Made by a program: the position numbers and the translations under genes. DNA of 64,000 nt. It comes from Eledone cirrhosa (lineage: Eukaryota). Shown in pieces: positions 350-60,152 of the stretch. The stretch spans positions 28,768,001 through 28,832,000 of the forward strand of contig OZ024760.1 of the NCBI GenBank assembly GCA_964016885.1. Direction: 5' to 3'. Each line of letters begins with the position of its first letter. Position 1 is the first letter of the stretch. The notes under the pieces are model-generated. The model was not told the DNA's origin. It was given only the letters and a program-made list of their open reading frames with translations, and ran no database searches.

Positions 350-720
350 GTATATATATATGTGTATATATATATATGTATATATATATATATGTGTATA
401 TATATATGTATATATATATATGTATATGTATATATATGTATATGTATATATATGTATATATATATATATATGTTTATATATGTATATATATATATATATG
501 TTTATATATGTATATATGTATATATATGTATATATGTGTATATATGTGTATATATATATATGTATATATGTGTATATATATGTATGTACATATATATGTA
601 TATATATGTATATATATGTATGTATGTATATATATGTATATATATGTATGTATATATATATATGTATATATATGTATATATATATGTATATATATGTATA
701 TATATGTATGTATATATATG

Positions 721-756
<36 letters not shown>
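350..756. repeat. (TA)n/(TATG)n microsatellite; representative of many similar tracts (e.g. 3555-4224, 4571-5151, 6073-6906, 36071-36532, 37285-37874, 54836-55793, 57098-57401, 57739-58140)
   Basis: Low-complexity TA/TG sequence seen directly; source of the spurious YIYI/MYIY ORFs. Confidence 0.98.
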
Positions 757-757
<1 letters not shown>

Positions 758-2240
758 CATCATCATCATCATCATTTTACGTCCGCTTTTCCCTGCTTGC
801 AAGGGTGGGACGGGTCTTATTCAGCACAGCATCTCTCCACTCGTCACGGTCCCTCGTTATCTCCACCGTGAGCTTCAATGATCTGAGGTCTGTTCTCACC
901 ACCTCCGCCCATGTTTTTCGTGGTCTACCTCTACCACGTCTTCCTTCAACTGGCATTTCCTGGCACTTCTTCACCCATCGGTCATCCTCCATGCTCATCA
1001 CATGACCATACCACCTCAGTCTCCTCTCCCGTACACTACATTCTATCCCTCTCAGACACAGTTTCTCTCTCAACACATTTATGCTGGGTCGTTCACGCAC
1101 ATTTACACTGCACATCCAACGGAACATGCTTGCCTCATTTCTCTCCAGCCGTCGCATATCCTCTGCGGTTGCTGCCCATGTCTCACTACCATGCAGCATC
1201 GCGCTCCTCACACAGGCATCATACAACCGGCCTTTCGTACGCAGGGAGAAATCCTTCTTCATCAACAGAGGAAGCAGATCCCTAAACTTCTTCCAACCCG
1301 TCCTTATTCTAGATACTATGGCCTCGGAACACCCTCCTCCCATGCTAATCTGATCTCCTAGGTACCGGAAGCTATCCACCACCTCTATAGCGCCCTCTCG
1401 CATTTGAAAAATGTGTCTATCAGTGCGACTTCTACTGTCTAATTTCCCTGTACATCTACTGCATACAATTTTCTCCCTACCTGTTAGTTTGCCTGCTATC
1501 CCGCTACATCTCTTGTGTACCCAGGACCTACATTGTGTGCATTTTATAGAATTTATGCCAGTTCCTTTTCTGCATATCGAACATGGCCATTTCCCTGACG
1601 GAATCAGGGTTTTGTCCTCTTTTCTACTCATCAACACTTTTGTCTTAGCTAGATTTACTCTCAGTCCTCTTGCTTCCAACTGCTGTTTCCATAGCCGGAA
1701 TTTATTCTCTAGCTCCTCTACTGATTCTGCCATAAGAGCCAGATCGTCAGCATAGAGAAGTTCCCATGGACAGCCAGTCTTAAACTCCTCTGTTATGGCT
1801 TGGAGGACTATAATGAACAAGAGCGGGCTGAGGACCGAACCCTGATGTACTCCTACTTGTATCTGGAATTCCTCACTAAACGCCATTCCTACCCTGACTT
1901 TACTGAGAGTACCTCTGTACAAAGTTTGCACTGTCCTCACAAGCCATTCCTCAACACCCAGCTTCCTTAGGGACCACCAGATGACAGATCGGGGTACCCT
2001 ATCAAAGGCCTTCTCTAGGTCAACAAAGGCTAAGTATAGTGGCTTATTCTTCTCTAAGAACCTCTCTTGAATTTGTCTCACCAAGAAGAGGGCATCTGTT
2101 GTACTCTTCCCAGGCGCAAAACCAAACTGCATCTCATCTAGTTTGACCCTTTCTCTAATTAGTTGTGCTAAAATCCTTTCTGCCACTTTCATAACCTGAT
2201 CTATCAGTTTTATACCCCTATAATTGCTCCTCTCCAAAGC
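757..2240 (-). mobile_element. 5'-truncated RTE-clade LINE: RT and C-terminus open, (GAT)n tail
   Basis: ORF 777..2300 has [54 protein letters not shown] and GRPRKTW motifs; ends in a (CAT)n tail at 757-774; the ORF N-terminus is microsatellite-derived. Confidence 0.95.
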
Positions 2241-2264
2241 ATATGTATATATATGTATATATAT

Positions 2265-3555
2265 GTAGGAGGTGAGTTTTATTGTAGTACAATAAAGCAA
2301 TGCAGATATCGGATAAGAAGCACTCTACAGTTTGTAGGACTGGAGTATACATAATATAAGATCAAAAGATGGTTAAAGGAGTTCCATGTATTTTATTATG
2401 CGCATTTCAAAAACAAACATCATCATGCAATAATATTTGTGTTTTCATCAGATAAAACAGGAGAACATGATATGAAGGCTAAAAAACACTTTTGGATAGT
2501 GCAGTTTTAAATCAACATATGAAAAGTGGTTTTAGATTGATGTGTGATATTGGGAAAAATATTTTATTTAGAGAGGGGGGGGTGGAAAGGATGAAAAAGG
2601 GGAGGAGATGAGAGGGAGAGATGGGTGATAGAGAGAAAGAGATAGTTTTTATAACTGAGAGGAGATATATTGTTTTACATAGAGAGGTTGAAAACCGTTG
2701 GAAGATAATGTATAAATTAAAAAAATTTGAAAATTAACGAAGGGAGGATATGTGCGAGGAAAAAATATTTTATTTAGGGAGGGGGTGTGGTGTGGAAAGG
2801 ATGAAAAAAGGGGGAGGAGATGAGAGTGAAGGTGGAGAGGGAGAGATGGGTGATAGAGAGAGAGAGATAGTTTTTATAACTGAGAAAAAGATATATTGTT
2901 TTACATAGAGAGGTTGAGAACCGTTGGAAGATAATGTATAAATTAAAGGAATTTGAAAATTAACGAAGGGAATTTATGTATGAAGATAGAGAGAAAAAAT
3001 AATAATTGTGGATGAATATTCTAACGTCAAAAAAAGTGTATGTTGATAAGTATTGTGGCAATTTCAAAATTAACGAAGAGAAAAATTATTAAGGTTTGTG
3101 TGTAGAAGGATTTGAGAAAAATAATGTGAAGTTAAAGTTTGTTATTTGAAGGAATTGATAATATATGCGAATAAAGAGTTAATATGTATTAAGAATGAGT
3201 TCGTTGATGGGGAGAAAAAAAAAAAAAAATAAATTAAGGATGAAATTGAGATTAAAAAGATTTATGATAGAGAGAAAAAATAATAATGATTGCGGATGAA
3301 TATTCTAACGTCAAAAAAACAAATGTATATGTTATGAAGGATTTTACAAGGTGAAGATAGAATGAGGGTAATGAGTAAACAAGTATTATAGAGTGTATAA
3401 TGCCCTTTAAAGTAAGGTAGGAAGATGGGTATATTTTAAAGAGGTGTATGTATATGTGCCTTTGAGAAAAGATTCTAAATTGATAAAGAATTGAATATTA
3501 ACTGTATACTTTGTGAAAAGTCCTATGGAATTTATGCAGGCAGATAGAAAACAAA
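2265..3555 (-). mobile_element. Penelope-like element remnant (pLTR with hammerhead; internal ~240 bp duplication)
   Basis: Contains a type I hammerhead at 2389-2459; the terminal ~69 bp recur at 57566-57634; boundaries approximate. Confidence 0.55.
2389..2459 (-). ncRNA. minimal type I hammerhead ribozyme
   Basis: Minus strand: TGTTTTAT-CTGATGA-long stem II-GAAA-TGCGCA-TA-ATAAAATA; palindromic stem III (ATGCGCAT), AUA cleavage triplet. Confidence 0.8.
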
Positions 3556-17413: not shown

Positions 17414-17726
17414 TGTATATATATATGTATATCATCATCATCATCATCATCATCATTGTTTAACGTCTATCTTCCACGCTAGCATGGGTTTAGACGGGAA
17501 TTGTCCCACTTGAGGCAAGATTGGTTGTCTTGCTCGTATAGGACTGTCTGGCAGATATGTATGTATATATATATGTATGCATATATATATGTATGCATAT
17601 ATATATGTATGCATATATATATGTATTTATATATATATGTATATATATATATGTATATATGTATGTATATATATACATATAAATATGTATGTATGTATAT
17701 ATGTGTGTATGTATGTATGTATATAT

Positions 17727-18335
17727 GTCAGGTCACCAGTTGGTGCTACTGGTAACATGTATCCCAGTACATCCTGTCTCATGGTCGGGTCGTTGGCGAC
17801 TAAACTGGCAACCCCACCAAGGTTTCTTGGCGAGGAGGGTGACTTTGGACATCCTGCAGGACTAAAAACAAAACCTGTCAAAGGGCAAAGGAGCTCTTAA
17901 GAGTCAATGGCCATCCAAAATCACCGGGAGACATGACCCCTTAGCCTTTGTCAAGGCAGAATTCTAGGAGAAGGAAAACTCTGATATATCACCTGCAACC
18001 CTGATGGTATCCAATGATGTTGACTTGTTATTCTTTTTGGTAAATATCATCTTGGTTAAGAGAATGGGACTGGCTTTGTGCAGTGCCTTTGCTCACTATA
18101 AAAGCTTCATGGCACAGGCATTGCTTTATATCTGGATATCTCTCTGCACTTGTCATCACAGGGTACAATGGGCCCAGCACTATGTGTCAGTAATTGTCAC
18201 AAGTGTAGTGTTTGTACCAGAGTTTTTAAGTCGCTGGCTGGACTAAAAAGTCACACTCGTTCAGCGCATCAGTAGGGGTTCTCCTACATGGATATAAAGT
18301 AGTGGCCGTACTCGAAAACGAGTTGGCAGCCACCA
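17727..18335 (+). mobile_element. non-coding RTE-associated retroelement with a twister-like 5' head and (ATGT)n tail
   Basis: Near-identical copy at 54267-54835 and a 3' fragment at 33655-33837; CTAGGAGAAGGAAAACTCTGA resembles RTE 5' UTRs (from memory); 3' hairpin CTCG-AAAA-CGAG before the tail. Confidence 0.7.
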
Positions 18336-18344
18336 TGTATGTGT

Positions 18345-18612
18345 GTATGGATTTATGTTCTGGTTTTATAATTTCACAAAGTTTTACCAATAGAGAGAGA
18401 GTCGGTTTCTAACATAGACACAAGACTCTCTCATTGGAATTTACACAATATCTGCTAGGTAGATATGTATGTATGTCTGCATGTGTAGATATGGATGTTA
18501 TTGTATGTGTGGATGTGTATGTTTTGAGTTGTATGTGTGCATGTGTATATGCTTTGTATCTGTACATGTGTATATGCAGTTATTAGATGCAAAATGTTTG
18601 GAATGTTTTACA
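18345..18612 (-). mobile_element. 3' end of R4/Dong-like LINE (copy of 26715-26972)
   Basis: Near-identical to the 3' UTR and ORF end of the element at 26700-27860. Confidence 0.8.
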
Positions 18613-18659
18613 TGTATGTATGTATATATATGTATGTATGTATATATGTATGTATGTAT

Positions 18660-19137
18660 GCACCCAGTACAACCTGTCTCATGGTCGGGTCTTCAGCGAC
18701 TAAACCGGCAACTCCACCAATATTACTTGGTGAGGAGGGTGATTTTGGATACCCTACAAGACAAAAAACAAAACCTGACAAAGGGCGGAAGAACTCATAA
18801 GAGTCAACGGCCATCTGAAACTGTGCTGCACAGTTAAACCACTGGGAGTGAAGGACCCCTAGCCTTTGTCAGGGCATTCTTCTAGGAGAAGGCAACTCAG
18901 GAAACTGGGATAACTCCGATATAAAACCTGCGACTCAGTAGTTACCGATGATGTTGATCTTTTCTTCTTTTCGGGTTAGAGCTACTGTGGCTCAGAGAGT
19001 GGGATTGGCTCAGTGCACAGTCTTTCCTCACTTTAAAATATATCTTCACACAGGCATTGCACAATAGAATTAATTAATAATTATTAATAAGGGTATATCG
19101 TGCAATGGCCATACTTGATAACGAGGGGGAAGCCATC
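18660..19137 (+). mobile_element. second subfamily of the twister-headed non-coding element
   Basis: 5' part homologous to 17763-17900 with a different 3' part; that 3' end recurs inverted at ~7415-7510 and at 61131-61170. Confidence 0.65.
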
Positions 19138-19144
19138 TTGTATG

Positions 19145-19177
<33 letters not shown>

Positions 19178-33608: not shown

Positions 33609-33835
33609 CGAAGTGTGTTTTATAAATTTTGACATAACCAAGGACTATCCTTGTCGTTACATGGTATCATGGGCCCACTACTATGTGTCAATAATTGTCA
33701 CAAGTGTAGTGTTTGTACCAGAGTTTTCAAGTCGCTGGCTGGACTAAAAAGTCACACTCGTTCAGCGCATCGGTAGGGGTTCTCCTACATGGATATAAAG
33801 TAGTGGCCGTACTCGAAAACGAGTTGGCAGCCACC

Positions 33836-33912
<77 letters not shown>

Positions 33913-34064: not shown

Positions 34065-34093
<29 letters not shown>

Positions 34094-34095
<2 letters not shown>

Positions 34096-34505
34096 GACTT
34101 GGGCTTTGGTGTTGGTGTAGAGCAGTGATATCAGGTCCACTATCCTCTTGGGGATTCCAGAAACCTGTAAGATCTTCATCAGGCAGTGACGGCCCACAGA
34201 ATCAAAGCCTAAGTCATTACACATGATGGGATGACAGAGTTCTTTGAGATACTGGCTGGAGTGCACCAGGGAGATACATAGGCTCCCTACCTTTTTATCA
34301 TCGTAGTGGACTATTGTATGTGCCTTGCACTGGACAAACACCAGGACTCTGGCTTTACTGTAGCACCGGCTCAGAGCAGGAGAGTTAAGGCGAAAAAGAC
34401 ATCGGATGCTGAATTTGCCGACGACATAGTTTTGGTGACAAATACAGTGAAGGAGGCAGAGGATTTGATGCAGGAGGTTGAGACTGTGTCAGCGATAATG
34501 GATCT
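34094..34505. mobile_element. LINE RT fragment with its upstream part inverted
   Basis: Minus 34094-34210 gives [37 protein letters not shown]; plus 34211-34505 gives [29 protein letters not shown]...EFADDIVL. Confidence 0.8.
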
Positions 34506-34708
34506 CGGGAATTTTACCCGCCCTAGAATATATATATATATATTTATATAGTATTTACGTATCGAGAAAGAGAAAAAAAGGGGGGATAGGTGATACATAT
34601 AGTTATTTGCCAAGTAGCGTATGCCAAAGGTGCTCGATACTAGTGCCGGCAGTATTAAATATTCGAAGTGTTAATATTTAGTGGGCTAGAGAGTTAGCAG
34701 AGCGTAAG

Positions 34709-54266: not shown

Positions 54267-54835
54267 TACAACCTGTCCCATGGTCGGGTCGTTGGCGACT
54301 AAACTGGCAACCCCACCAAGGTTTCTTGATGAGGAGGGTGACTTTGGACATCCTGCAGGACTAAAAACAAAACCTGTCAAAGGGCAAAGGAGCTCTTAAG
54401 AGTCAATGGCCATCTAAAATCACTGGGAGAGATGACCCCTTAGCCTTTGTCAAGGCAGAATTCTAGGAGAAGGAAAACTCTGATATAACACCTGCAACCC
54501 TGATGGTATCCAATGATGTTGACTTGTTCTTCTTTTTGGTAAATATCATCTTGGTTAAGAGAGTGGGACTGGCTTTGTGCAGTGCCTTTGCTCACTATAA
54601 AAGCTTCACGGCACAGGCATTGCTTTATATCTGGAGATCTCTCTGCACTTGTCATCACATGGTACCATGGGCCCAGCACTATGTGTCAATAATTGTCACA
54701 AGTGTAGTGTTTGTACCAGAGTTTTCAAGTCGCTGGCTGGACTAAAAAGTCACACTCGTTCAGCGCATCGGTAGGGGTTCTCCTACATGGATATAAAGTA
54801 GTGGCCGTATTCGAAAACGAGTTGGCAGCCACCAT
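54267..54835 (+). mobile_element. copy of the twister-headed non-coding element
   Basis: Near-identical to 17768-18335. Confidence 0.75.
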
Positions 54836-57827: not shown

Positions 57828-58154
57828 ATATATATATATATGTATGTATATATATATATATATGTATGTATATATATATATGTGTATATATATATGTATG
57901 TATATATATATGTATGTATATATATATGTATGTATATATATGTATATATGTATATATGTATATATATATATATGTATGTATATATATGTATATATATATG
58001 TATGTATATATATGTATATATATATGTATGTATATATATGTATATATATATGTATGTATATATATGTATATATATATATGTATATATATATGTATGTATA
58101 TATATGTATATATATATGTATGTATGTATATATATGTATAAGTGTCGTACGTAT

Positions 58155-59728
58155 ATGATCTTCTCAGCTAGACAGCTCCAGGAGAAGTGCATTGAACAGG
58201 GCTTGGATCTGTATCAGGTTTTTGTCGATCTGACAAAGGCTTTCGATACTGTCAACAGAGATGCATTATGGAAGGTTCTCCAGAAACTTGGTTGCCCTGA
58301 TAAGTTCCTTGCTTTAGTTAGGTCTTTCCATGACGACATGAAGGCTTGGGTTAACGTCGGAGGTAACATGTCGGAGCCTATCTCAGTAAAAAATGGAGTG
58401 AAACAGGGGGATATTCCAGCACCGACCCTGTTTGCCATATACTTTGCAATGGTTTTCTGTATTGCATTCAGGAATTGCGAGCATGGTGTTTACATCCGAT
58501 ATCGAACCTCAGGCAGCATATTTAACATCAGGCGCTTTGCTGCGAAGACAAAAGTATTTACATCAGTCATAAGAGACCTCTTGTATGCAGATGATTGCGA
58601 TCTTGTAGCGCACACAGAGAGTGATATGCAGCACATTTTGAATGTATTTTCTGACGCTTGCACTGCCCTGGGTTTGACTGTCAGTCTCAAGAAAACCGTC
58701 GTCATGTACCAACCTGCCCCTAGTAAGCAGTACACTGAACCAAACATCTATGTGTATGGCAAACGACTCGGAGTGGTTGATCAGTTTGTCTACCTGGGAA
58801 GCACTGTCAATCGATACGGCAACCTTGACGGTGAAATCTCACTTAGGATTAGGAAAGCAAGTGATGCTTTCGGAAAGCTAGAAAGGCGACTCTGGGGTCG
58901 GCGAGACATATGCAGGAGGAAAAAGGTAAAGGTGTACAGGGCATGTGTACTCTCTTGTCTTCTTTATGCCTGCGAGACCTGGGTCACATATCGACGCCAC
59001 CTTAAGCAATTGGAGCGTTTCCATCAGATGTGTCTCAGACGGATCCATGGCGTTCACTGGAGGGACCACATCAGTGATGTCGAGATTTTGGAAAGCTCTA
59101 TGTGTGACAGTATAGAAGCTCTTGTGCTTAAGCAACGACTCCATTGGAGTGGTCACCTTGCCAGGATGAAGGATTCTAGAATACCAAAACAACTCTTCTA
59201 TGGAGAGTTGGTTAAAGGAAAACGACCGCCACATAAACCAAAAAAGAGGTATAAGGATTCCTTGAAAGCCTCTCTGAAAGACGCTAACATCTCTGCTGAT
59301 ACATGGGAAAATATTGCTGCTGATCGTAATAAGTGGAGAAAGACTGTATATGAGGGAAAAGTTGCCTTTGAGGCATCTCGAATCGCACACGAGAAAGTAA
59401 AGCGGGACGTGAGGAAGGGCATTGCTGTTGCACTTCCAGACGGTGAGGGTCCTCCTATGGTTCTGACATGCAGCGTCTGTGCGAGACTCTGCCTAAGCAA
59501 AGCTGGACTCGAAAGTCATCTTCGCAGTCATAAAGTAAGACCAGTGGTTGACTACCAGGCTGCTGTTGGAGATGCTACTCATCATGCTTGCCAAACATGT
59601 GGTAGAGAATGTAAATCAGCAGGAGGGCTCAAGCGACATGCAAAAGTACACGAACTCCAACCACAGCCGACTATTCCCAGTGAATGTTTTGGTTGCCGAC
59701 TCTGTGCAAGACATTTTAGATCATTGGC
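58155..59728 (+). mobile_element. RTE (BovB-like) LINE: open RT with C-terminal C2H2 fingers, 3' end displaced
   Basis: [64 protein letters not shown] and [11 protein letters not shown] motifs. Confidence 0.95.
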
Positions 59729-60152
59729 TGCACGTATCAGTTTAGCGGCGCTTATTATAACGTCGCTTTGTTCGTTTGTAAACAAACTGAACAGCCTGAA
59801 TTTATGCCATACGGTGTTAAGGCAACCATAATAAGCGCCGCTAAACTGATACGTGCATATATGTATGTGTACCTGTATGCATATGTATGTATATATGTAT
59901 ATATATATATATGTGCATGCTACTGTACGTCTGTATACATATATGTATGTACGTATACATGCATACTTACATTTAAGTAAGTGCCATACTAAGAGTGAGA
60001 AATGAAATTTCGTTTTCATTTTGTTTCAATTTATCGTTTTCGGTATGCCTGACCGATTTAACTCACTCAATATGCAAATTAGGCTGCTCAGCCGTTAATT
60101 TTCATAAGGAAAGTATATACTTTCGAACGTTCAACTATCTGGCAGATGGGTA

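Follow-up and report, generated by a model that had tools for sequence, protein, structure and literature searches.

The element and its copies in the window

The window, i.e. the whole 64,000-nt stretch of Eledone cirrhosa DNA analysed here, carries a full-length non-autonomous element derived from an RTE retrotransposon. We assigned it to family A and numbered its 5' part (the head) so that nt 1 corresponds to window position 17727. The features of this element and of its relatives are the following.

17727..18335, forward strand: full-length family-A non-autonomous bipartite RTE (5' UTR + 3' end)
17724..17783, forward strand: predicted core resembling subclass-1a exoribonuclease-resistant RNA (xrRNA)
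T17726/G17727 with A17771/C17770, forward strand: predicted PK1 of the core
17729-33/17772-76, forward strand: predicted P1
17734-45, forward strand: predicted P2, followed by the bulged C (C17746)
17747-52/17764-69, forward strand: predicted P3
T17728·A17748-T17768, forward strand: predicted triple position
17756-59/17780-83, forward strand: predicted PK2
17784..17809, forward strand: second module, stem 17792-96/17805-09, loop formed by the invariant CGACTAAA
17812..17877, forward strand: three hairpins downstream of the second module
17878..18185, forward strand: rest of the body derived from an RTE 5' UTR
18186..18335, forward strand: RTE 3' end (ORF remnant with the last C2H2 zinc finger, stop codon, 3' UTR hairpin)
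18662..19137, forward strand: family-B copy, 5'-truncated at head nt 36
33650..33836, forward strand: family-A 3' fragment
54267..54834, forward strand: family-A copy, 5'-truncated at head nt 42, with the minority TCCC variant
58140..59740, forward strand: young autonomous RTE copy, 5'-truncated, with RT and C2H2 fingers

The full-length element is followed by a (TGTA)n tail and its insertion site is (TATG)n. The host genome (3.0 Gb) is rich in microsatellites, and microsatellite miRNA matches swamped the output of an Rfam search over the whole window. All sequence blocks listed for 17727-17843 in the original prediction are present. An A to T change at 17772 breaks one P1 pair in this copy. 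The CGACTAAA loop of the second module is probably pseudoknotted to GTCG at 17784-87, and no compensatory change was seen in this 4-bp helix. The GAGGG motif (17835-39) sits within the AGGGTG/CATCCT stem of the downstream hairpins. The zinc-finger remnant matches Pfam zf-C2H2 with 24.8 bits (E 2.8e-05), just below the 25.2 cut-off.

Three copies of the head had been reported, and these are indeed homologous: the copy at 54267 is 92.7% identical to the full-length one over 659 nt, and the copy at 18661 is 71.8% identical over 408 nt. However, they start at head nt 42 and 36, respectively, so both are 5'-truncated, and neither includes the TC-ACC block or the 5' strand of the TACTGG stem.

Some other arrangements were noticed in the window. 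Elements of the head families have inserted into one another's (TGTA)n tails, giving head-to-tail clusters, both at 17640-19160 and at many other loci. The 3' UTR of the young RTE copy is replaced by a fold-back inverted duplication (59740-59860), and a 5'-inverted fragment of another RTE family, with a tail ending in (TA)n, is located at 34085-34515.

Subfamilies and autonomous RTEs

Searches of the same genome returned 522-3470 first-look candidates per subfamily query, which is a lower bound. Six subfamilies were distinguished: A (the first and third copies of the window), B (the second copy), C, D, E, and F. The heads of A, B, D, and E are 85-95% identical among themselves. In family C the same head is attached to a different body with an (ATTAG)n tail, which means that the head has been transferred to a new partner. 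Family F is about 330 nt long with a (GGATT)n tail, gave 130 exact 19-mer matches and has an RTE 5' UTR motif tied by Kojima to the Ceph-domain. There are also tandem arrays (L380-L387; G000:C15:169588-171317) of a 95-102-nt unit, with a 118-nt spacing on C15, and this unit comprises almost exactly the xrRNA-like core and the second pseudoknot.

An older autonomous BovB-like RTE has the head as its genuine 5' end: in seven of its 20 loci a complete head is followed by a UTR of about 480 nt and an APE-RT ORF. A young autonomous RTE codes for a 1182 aa protein with Pfam Exo_endo_phos, RVT_1, and C2H2 domains. About 300 nt of its 5' UTR are shared with family B in 17 of 20 loci and are nearly identical to the family-B body, while the 3' tail is common in three of the six loci examined, namely those which reach the tail. 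The young RTE, represented in the window by the copy at 58140..59740, is the likely enzyme source. The 3' part of family A consists of the C2H2 finger remnant and an RTE-type tail. Two other partner LINEs were considered for the family, the twister-headed RTE and the RTE family of the 34235-34515 fragment, and both were rejected since their tails differ.

As the UTRs and tails of the families match autonomous RTEs, these short, internally deleted copies are bipartite non-autonomous RTEs in the sense of Kojima (PMC5786205). Like Bov-A, RTESINE1/2, and WALLSI3 (Kojima 2018, PMC5786205), they join a 5' UTR to an RTE 3' end, have a microsatellite tail and the 5' end of the LINE itself, and have no small-RNA head. 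Unlike Kojima's elements, they share an xrRNA-like 5' module common to subfamilies A-F, which have different bodies and tails. No tRNA was detected at the head, and a search of 17725-18340 with Rfam small-RNA families gave nothing better than E 2. The view of the element as a non-coding RTE passenger with a structured, non-tRNA head and a fixed 5' end was right.

The youngest RTE, whose copies are about 100% identical, has no head and keeps the downstream 300 nt of the UTR. Its leader of about 1.9 kb, which resembles a captured promoter, has a fixed start (4 of 10 copies start at one base, two more within 30 nt). That this RTE has lost the head speaks against the xrRNA interpretation; taken with the acquired long leader, the loss is compatible with a role either at the 5' end or as a promoter. 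The leader also carries a site resembling a splice donor.

Relatives of the head were searched among 71 metagenome loci of related RTEs. The head HMM matched three of them: L326 (E 1e-25), L318 (E 1e-18, 3' part of the head only), and L290 (E 9e-15). Their proteins share 43-46% identity with that of the older RTE. Identity is 63-75% in the core and falls to 35-46% in the remaining UTR. In a protein tree, built by a quick method from rows with at least 230 aligned residues, the head-bearing metagenome RTEs are scattered and the twister RTEs fall outside the head-bearing group. L264 is placed among the head-bearing rows, yet there is no head at its locus. Overall, the RTE origin, the bipartite anatomy, the sharp 5' boundary and the retention of the head across distant RTEs are evident from these data. 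A single-protein scan of metagenomes and a scan of viral proteins found nothing. A 1061-nt contig (run X5) also contains this core, but its P2 is longer and the region downstream differs; this related head is absent from the E. cirrhosa genome.

Predicted fold of the head

The fold predicted from the alignment of segments comprises P1 (3-7/46-50), a variable P2 (8-19), an unpaired C20, P3 (21-26/38-43), and a loop pseudoknot (30-33/54-57), followed by a stem (66-70/79-83) with a CGAC loop which can pair with 58-61. On a 10-row alignment 95% of the cells are paired under this model and five of the 28 pairs show double-sided changes. Its score was reached by 5 of 500 shuffles, a rank that 5-25% of unconstrained alignments also reach. 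A screen of 1891 possible 4-bp helices left 16 that are paired in each of the six lineages; among these, double-sided changes are most numerous in the loop pseudoknot. The covariation rests on few events, found in two single metagenome copies.

P1 and P3 are paired in 100% of the 10 rows, while P2 varies freely and is rebuilt in each lineage. C20, between P2 and P3, is present in all six lineages and in the majority of family F. The G1-C44 pair is found in 10/10 rows; the outer PK1 pair (nt -1 with nt 45) is UA in five, GC in two and unpaired in three. This genome has U-A at this pair and the two metagenome heads have G-C, with mismatches in some copies: G opposite A in 8/15 F heads and T opposite T in 11/58 D/E heads. 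The pattern with which the heads were located biases such per-family counts upward. Letters compatible with a U2·A22-U42 triple are present in A, B, D, E, F, and L290, whereas L326 has A at nt 2. PK2 has 4 bp, with a compensatory change in L326; in L290 it has 5 bp in a shifted register and is scored as partly broken on the 10-row alignment.

The TACTGG/CCAGTA and CCAAG/CTTGG stems of the original prediction are supported by the alignment of lineages; the GTCG/CGAC hairpin, as drawn there, breaks in family F and L290. Two further pairings were rejected: nt 1-5 with 79-83, an apparent compensation between A and B, is contradicted by family E, and 58-62/79-83 by A62 of family F. An alternative 23-27/78-82 pairing also fits all six lineages. 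Folding of the single head sequence was uninformative (z -0.53) and MFE folds differ between families. The three-way junction and the loop pseudoknot are supported by comparison of lineages only. A conserved pseudoknotted head as such appears well supported.

Similarity to flavivirus subclass-1a xrRNA

Published descriptions define the subclass-1a xrRNA of mosquito-borne flaviviruses by a junction of P1, P2, and P3 with a conserved C between P2 and P3, a 1-2-bp PK1 formed by the 5' end, a U·A-U triple and a 2-7-bp PK2 (PMC8374639, PMC7527734, PMC8571300). Free variation of P2 with P1 and P3 held constant is described as behaviour of this subclass (PMC13161572). The predicted head has the three-way junction with a 5-bp P1 and a variable P2, the single C, a 1-2-bp PK1 bearing G-C, the U·A-U triple positions, a 4-5-bp PK2 between L3 and the 3' segment and a P4-like stem downstream, all at matching places. 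In two of the Rfam matches the P1 and P3 differences from the consensus preserve the pairs. The head differs from the flavivirus xrRNA in its location at the 5' end of a cellular retrotransposon rather than in a viral 3' UTR, in the second predicted pseudoknot (CGACTAAA loop) that follows it, and in that its resistance is a prediction.

Out of 4227 Rfam models, Flavivirus_SLIV (RF01415) was the best match for L395 (27.7 bits, E 0.0028), and it was also the best for L003 (23.4 bits, E 0.022) and L207 (20.3 bits, E 0.098). The match of the window copy, with one P1 pair mutated, is weak (16.5 bits, E 3.2), and L290 and L326 gave no match at E<=10. All scores (16.5-29.6 bits) are far under the 54.5-bit cut-off, which makes it less likely that the head belongs to the viral family, but not less likely that it functions in the same way. 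A genome-wide search with the same model found three matches (E 6.6-9), all of them heads, at a level which was also reached in 7 of 14 control genomes.

We described the 1a features by a descriptor, which was written after the sequences were known and gave one false match in GT-rich DNA. L003 and L290 pass it, as do 1/3000 and 0/3000 of their shuffles, respectively. The strict version is passed by 61 of 183 decayed heads. A relaxed version applied to 48 upstream regions, many of which may stop short of the true 5' end, gave three matches in sense and one in antisense orientation. One match, 141 nt upstream of the ORF match in L325, is of unrelated sequence with a 7-bp loop pairing and may be due to chance. 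A covariance model built here recovered, among the 71 metagenome loci, only its two training sequences. The core pattern had no match in viral and prokaryotic contigs, and none of 24 viral pattern matches inspected by eye had the upstream junction. Viral contigs L346, L347, and L349 have a hairpin followed by GTCG...GGCGACTAAACCG which could form the same second pseudoknot; the three-way junction upstream is absent from them.

On balance we slightly favour the interpretation that the first 57 nt or so fold like a flavivirus subclass-1a xrRNA, which would likely set and protect the 5' end of the element. The likeness may reflect either shared ancestry or convergence.

5' ends and insertion junctions

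The 106 full-length heads have one common start point, with G at nt 1 in 98 of them and TAT preceding. With queries starting inside the head, nt 1 was reached by 29/29 B, 14/24 E, and 22/29 D copies. The 5' ends had been expected to pile up at AACTCACC; they pile up at (G)TCAGGT instead. Self-cleavage at U/AAC had been proposed to set this end, and TAAC does not occur in the 10 nt upstream of any of the 106 heads.

Junctions were counted in family F, which also occurs outside microsatellites. Of its 82 loci, 40 were left out of the count (25 without tail, 15 in tandem). Exact target duplications were found in 9 of the 42 tailed copies, against 20 of 1722 control pairs. In eight of nine readable junctions 2-6 extra bases, differing between copies, precede nt 1, and none has 0-1. 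About three of these gaps could be duplications shortened by mutation, and extra bases at a 5' end may also be added without a template. A set of 86 younger copies gave two clean B/D sites with a 2-base gap, two A copies whose duplication ends at nt -1, in a microsatellite context, and six further matches that are ambiguous. Old target duplications erode, and the target choice of RTEs is described as dependent on T-rich DNA and the tail repeat (PMC6007223).

Xrn1 is reported to halt 5-6 nt before P1 (PMC5760640), or two positions before PK1 (PMC13161572). On the head numbering this corresponds to nt -3/-4. A halt at this position would leave a few bases of the donor flank before nt 1, while cleavage at nt 1 would leave none. 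The junction gaps are only suggestive as a sign of exonuclease stalling.

We propose that the elements are read through from upstream DNA; their insertion into each other's (TGTA)n tails, in head-to-tail clusters, would supply such transcription. The read-through transcript, once cut or decapped, would be digested inward by 5'-3' exonucleases of the Xrn1/Xrn2 type until they stop at the ring-like knot, a few bases before nt 1. The trimmed and protected RNA could then be copied by the RTE protein via the shared 3' tail. The knot would thus substitute for the HDV-like and twister ribozymes of other RTEs.

Possible significance

According to a 2021 review, xrRNAs had been characterised only in viruses and finding them in eukaryotic genomes was an open goal (PMC8374639). 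The head family provides natural candidates. Searches of openly accessible articles gave no report of xrRNA on a retrotransposon. A broader proposal, which we put forward tentatively and with somewhat less than even confidence, is that of an animal RTE lineage with a working 1a xrRNA at its 5' end. It would be the first xrRNA that a cellular genome encodes other than in viral insertions; it would exist in thousands of copies, mature the retrotransposon RNA by exonuclease stalling and not by self-cleavage, and share ancestry with the flaviviral element through exchange between viruses and retroelements. If true, this would constitute a third route to the 5' ends of non-LTR retrotransposons, beside promoters and ribozymes, and raise the question of the origin of the flaviviral fold. 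The head could also serve as a native compact 5' stabiliser for retrotransposon-based gene insertion, the efficiency of which is described as limited by 5' stability (PMC12222951).

Alternative explanations

The xrRNA-like fold might chiefly bind the RTE protein or act in translation, with the 5' end coming from an internal promoter near nt 1. We consider this unlikely, even though the TCAG at the start of the head resembles an initiator and the young RTE has swapped the head for the leader of about 1.9 kb with its own fixed start. Bipartite RTEs are also considered to be transcribed by Pol II from their own 5' ends (PMC5786205). However, a DNA promoter does not explain the paired changes, and the match covers exactly the 1a tertiary positions, i.e. 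the bulged C, U·A-U and the 5' G-C. Extra 5' bases that vary between copies are more easily explained by read-through transcripts than by a single start site.

It is rather improbable that the fold is real and belongs to an undescribed self-cleaving ribozyme, loosely HDV-like, which cuts at or just before nt 1. The topology of HDV-like ribozymes is P1-P2-P3/L3-P1.1(GG)-P4-J4/2 starting from a 5' G, and the head resembles it in the 5' G, a long P1, nested pseudoknots and a C-U-A-A stretch. In favour of it, the copies have a sharp 5' end, pairing is possible between G1 and Y52 and between nt 23-27 and 78-82, and CGACTAAA is invariant. Ribozymes are known at the 5' ends of RTEs (PMC5786205, PMC8501958). 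The HDV-like 5' ribozymes of R2, RTE, and Ingi share with the head the G start, the location wholly downstream of the 5' end and pseudoknotting, and are thought to shield the RNA from exonucleases (PMC5786205, PMC12222951). Unlike them, the head has neither the P1.1 GG nor the 3-bp P3/L3 motif: no GG follows P1 as would be required, and nt 61-62 are GA in family F. A relaxed 5'-anchored HDV descriptor was negative in B, D, E, and four autonomous UTRs and gave one implausible fold in A. There is no hammerhead core, and no Rfam ribozyme matched 17725-18340 at E<=10. Cleavage at this position is also disfavoured by most readable junctions, where nt 1 is preceded by extra bases.

The resemblance to xrRNA could be a coincidence, the head being a conserved UTR with some hairpins and no knot at the 5' end. 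The Rfam scores are sub-threshold and two relatives are missed, independent covariation events are few, and repeated YYGG/CCRG words permit several folds. Against this, the same one of 4227 models comes top in three subfamilies, the descriptor passes at most 1/3000 shuffles and both pseudoknots covary. We regard coincidence as very improbable.

The least probable explanation, to which we give almost no weight, is that the head is a degenerate twister ribozyme, as was originally proposed. CCTG/CGGG, the TCYC loop and GAGGAGGG do resemble the layout in Schistosoma given in PMC8501958. The twister T-variants of Perere-3 described there are also structured RNAs at the extreme 5' end of an RTE which fix its full-length start. 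Unlike these, the head has no UAA, CUCC-GC, UCCCAAGC or P2/GAGGG arrangement corresponding to those described (PMC8501958). The GAGGG, which had been read as a twister element, pairs downstream with CAYCCT. The TCCC loop is present in the 54267 copy, as reported, but is a minority state across the family heads: it occurs in 9/44 full-length heads of family A and 1/26 of family D, and is outside the five commonest loop states in B (31 heads, TCGC in 20) and E (35 heads, TGC in 22). The loops are TCTC, TCGC or TGC depending on the family, and do not correspond to the twister L4 UCCC..GC, with its T1 contact to GAGGG and T2 contact to GC.

The pairs proposed for twister are broken in F, L290, and L326, those of its P4 in the first two. 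In the supposed ACC/GGT pseudoknot ACC becomes ACT, GCT or AGG in other lineages while GGT remains constant; the bases at the ACC position covary with their partner in the P2 hairpin, which is rebuilt per lineage. With no TAAC upstream and no covariation in P4 and the pseudoknot, the observations are those which the original prediction itself had named as refuting it. Drawn on the alignment, the twister structure has double-sided changes in 1/16 pairs, and its score was reached by 124 of 500 shuffles. No Rfam twister model matched the head at E<=10, while RF03160 finds nine twisters on another RTE family of the same genome. A strict twister descriptor was passed by 0/144 heads and 5/9 of these genuine twisters. 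The relaxed one was passed by 66/144 heads and by the A and D consensus sequences; B and E failed and 5-12% of shuffles passed. Alignment of the heads to the twister heads of this genome is at the chance level (p 0.08-0.66).

Canonical twisters (L061-L069 and L120-L127, e.g., G000:C4:96354674) head autonomous RTEs of another group. These score 40-50 bits, under the RF03160 cut-off, and L122 has an open frame of 1043 codons.
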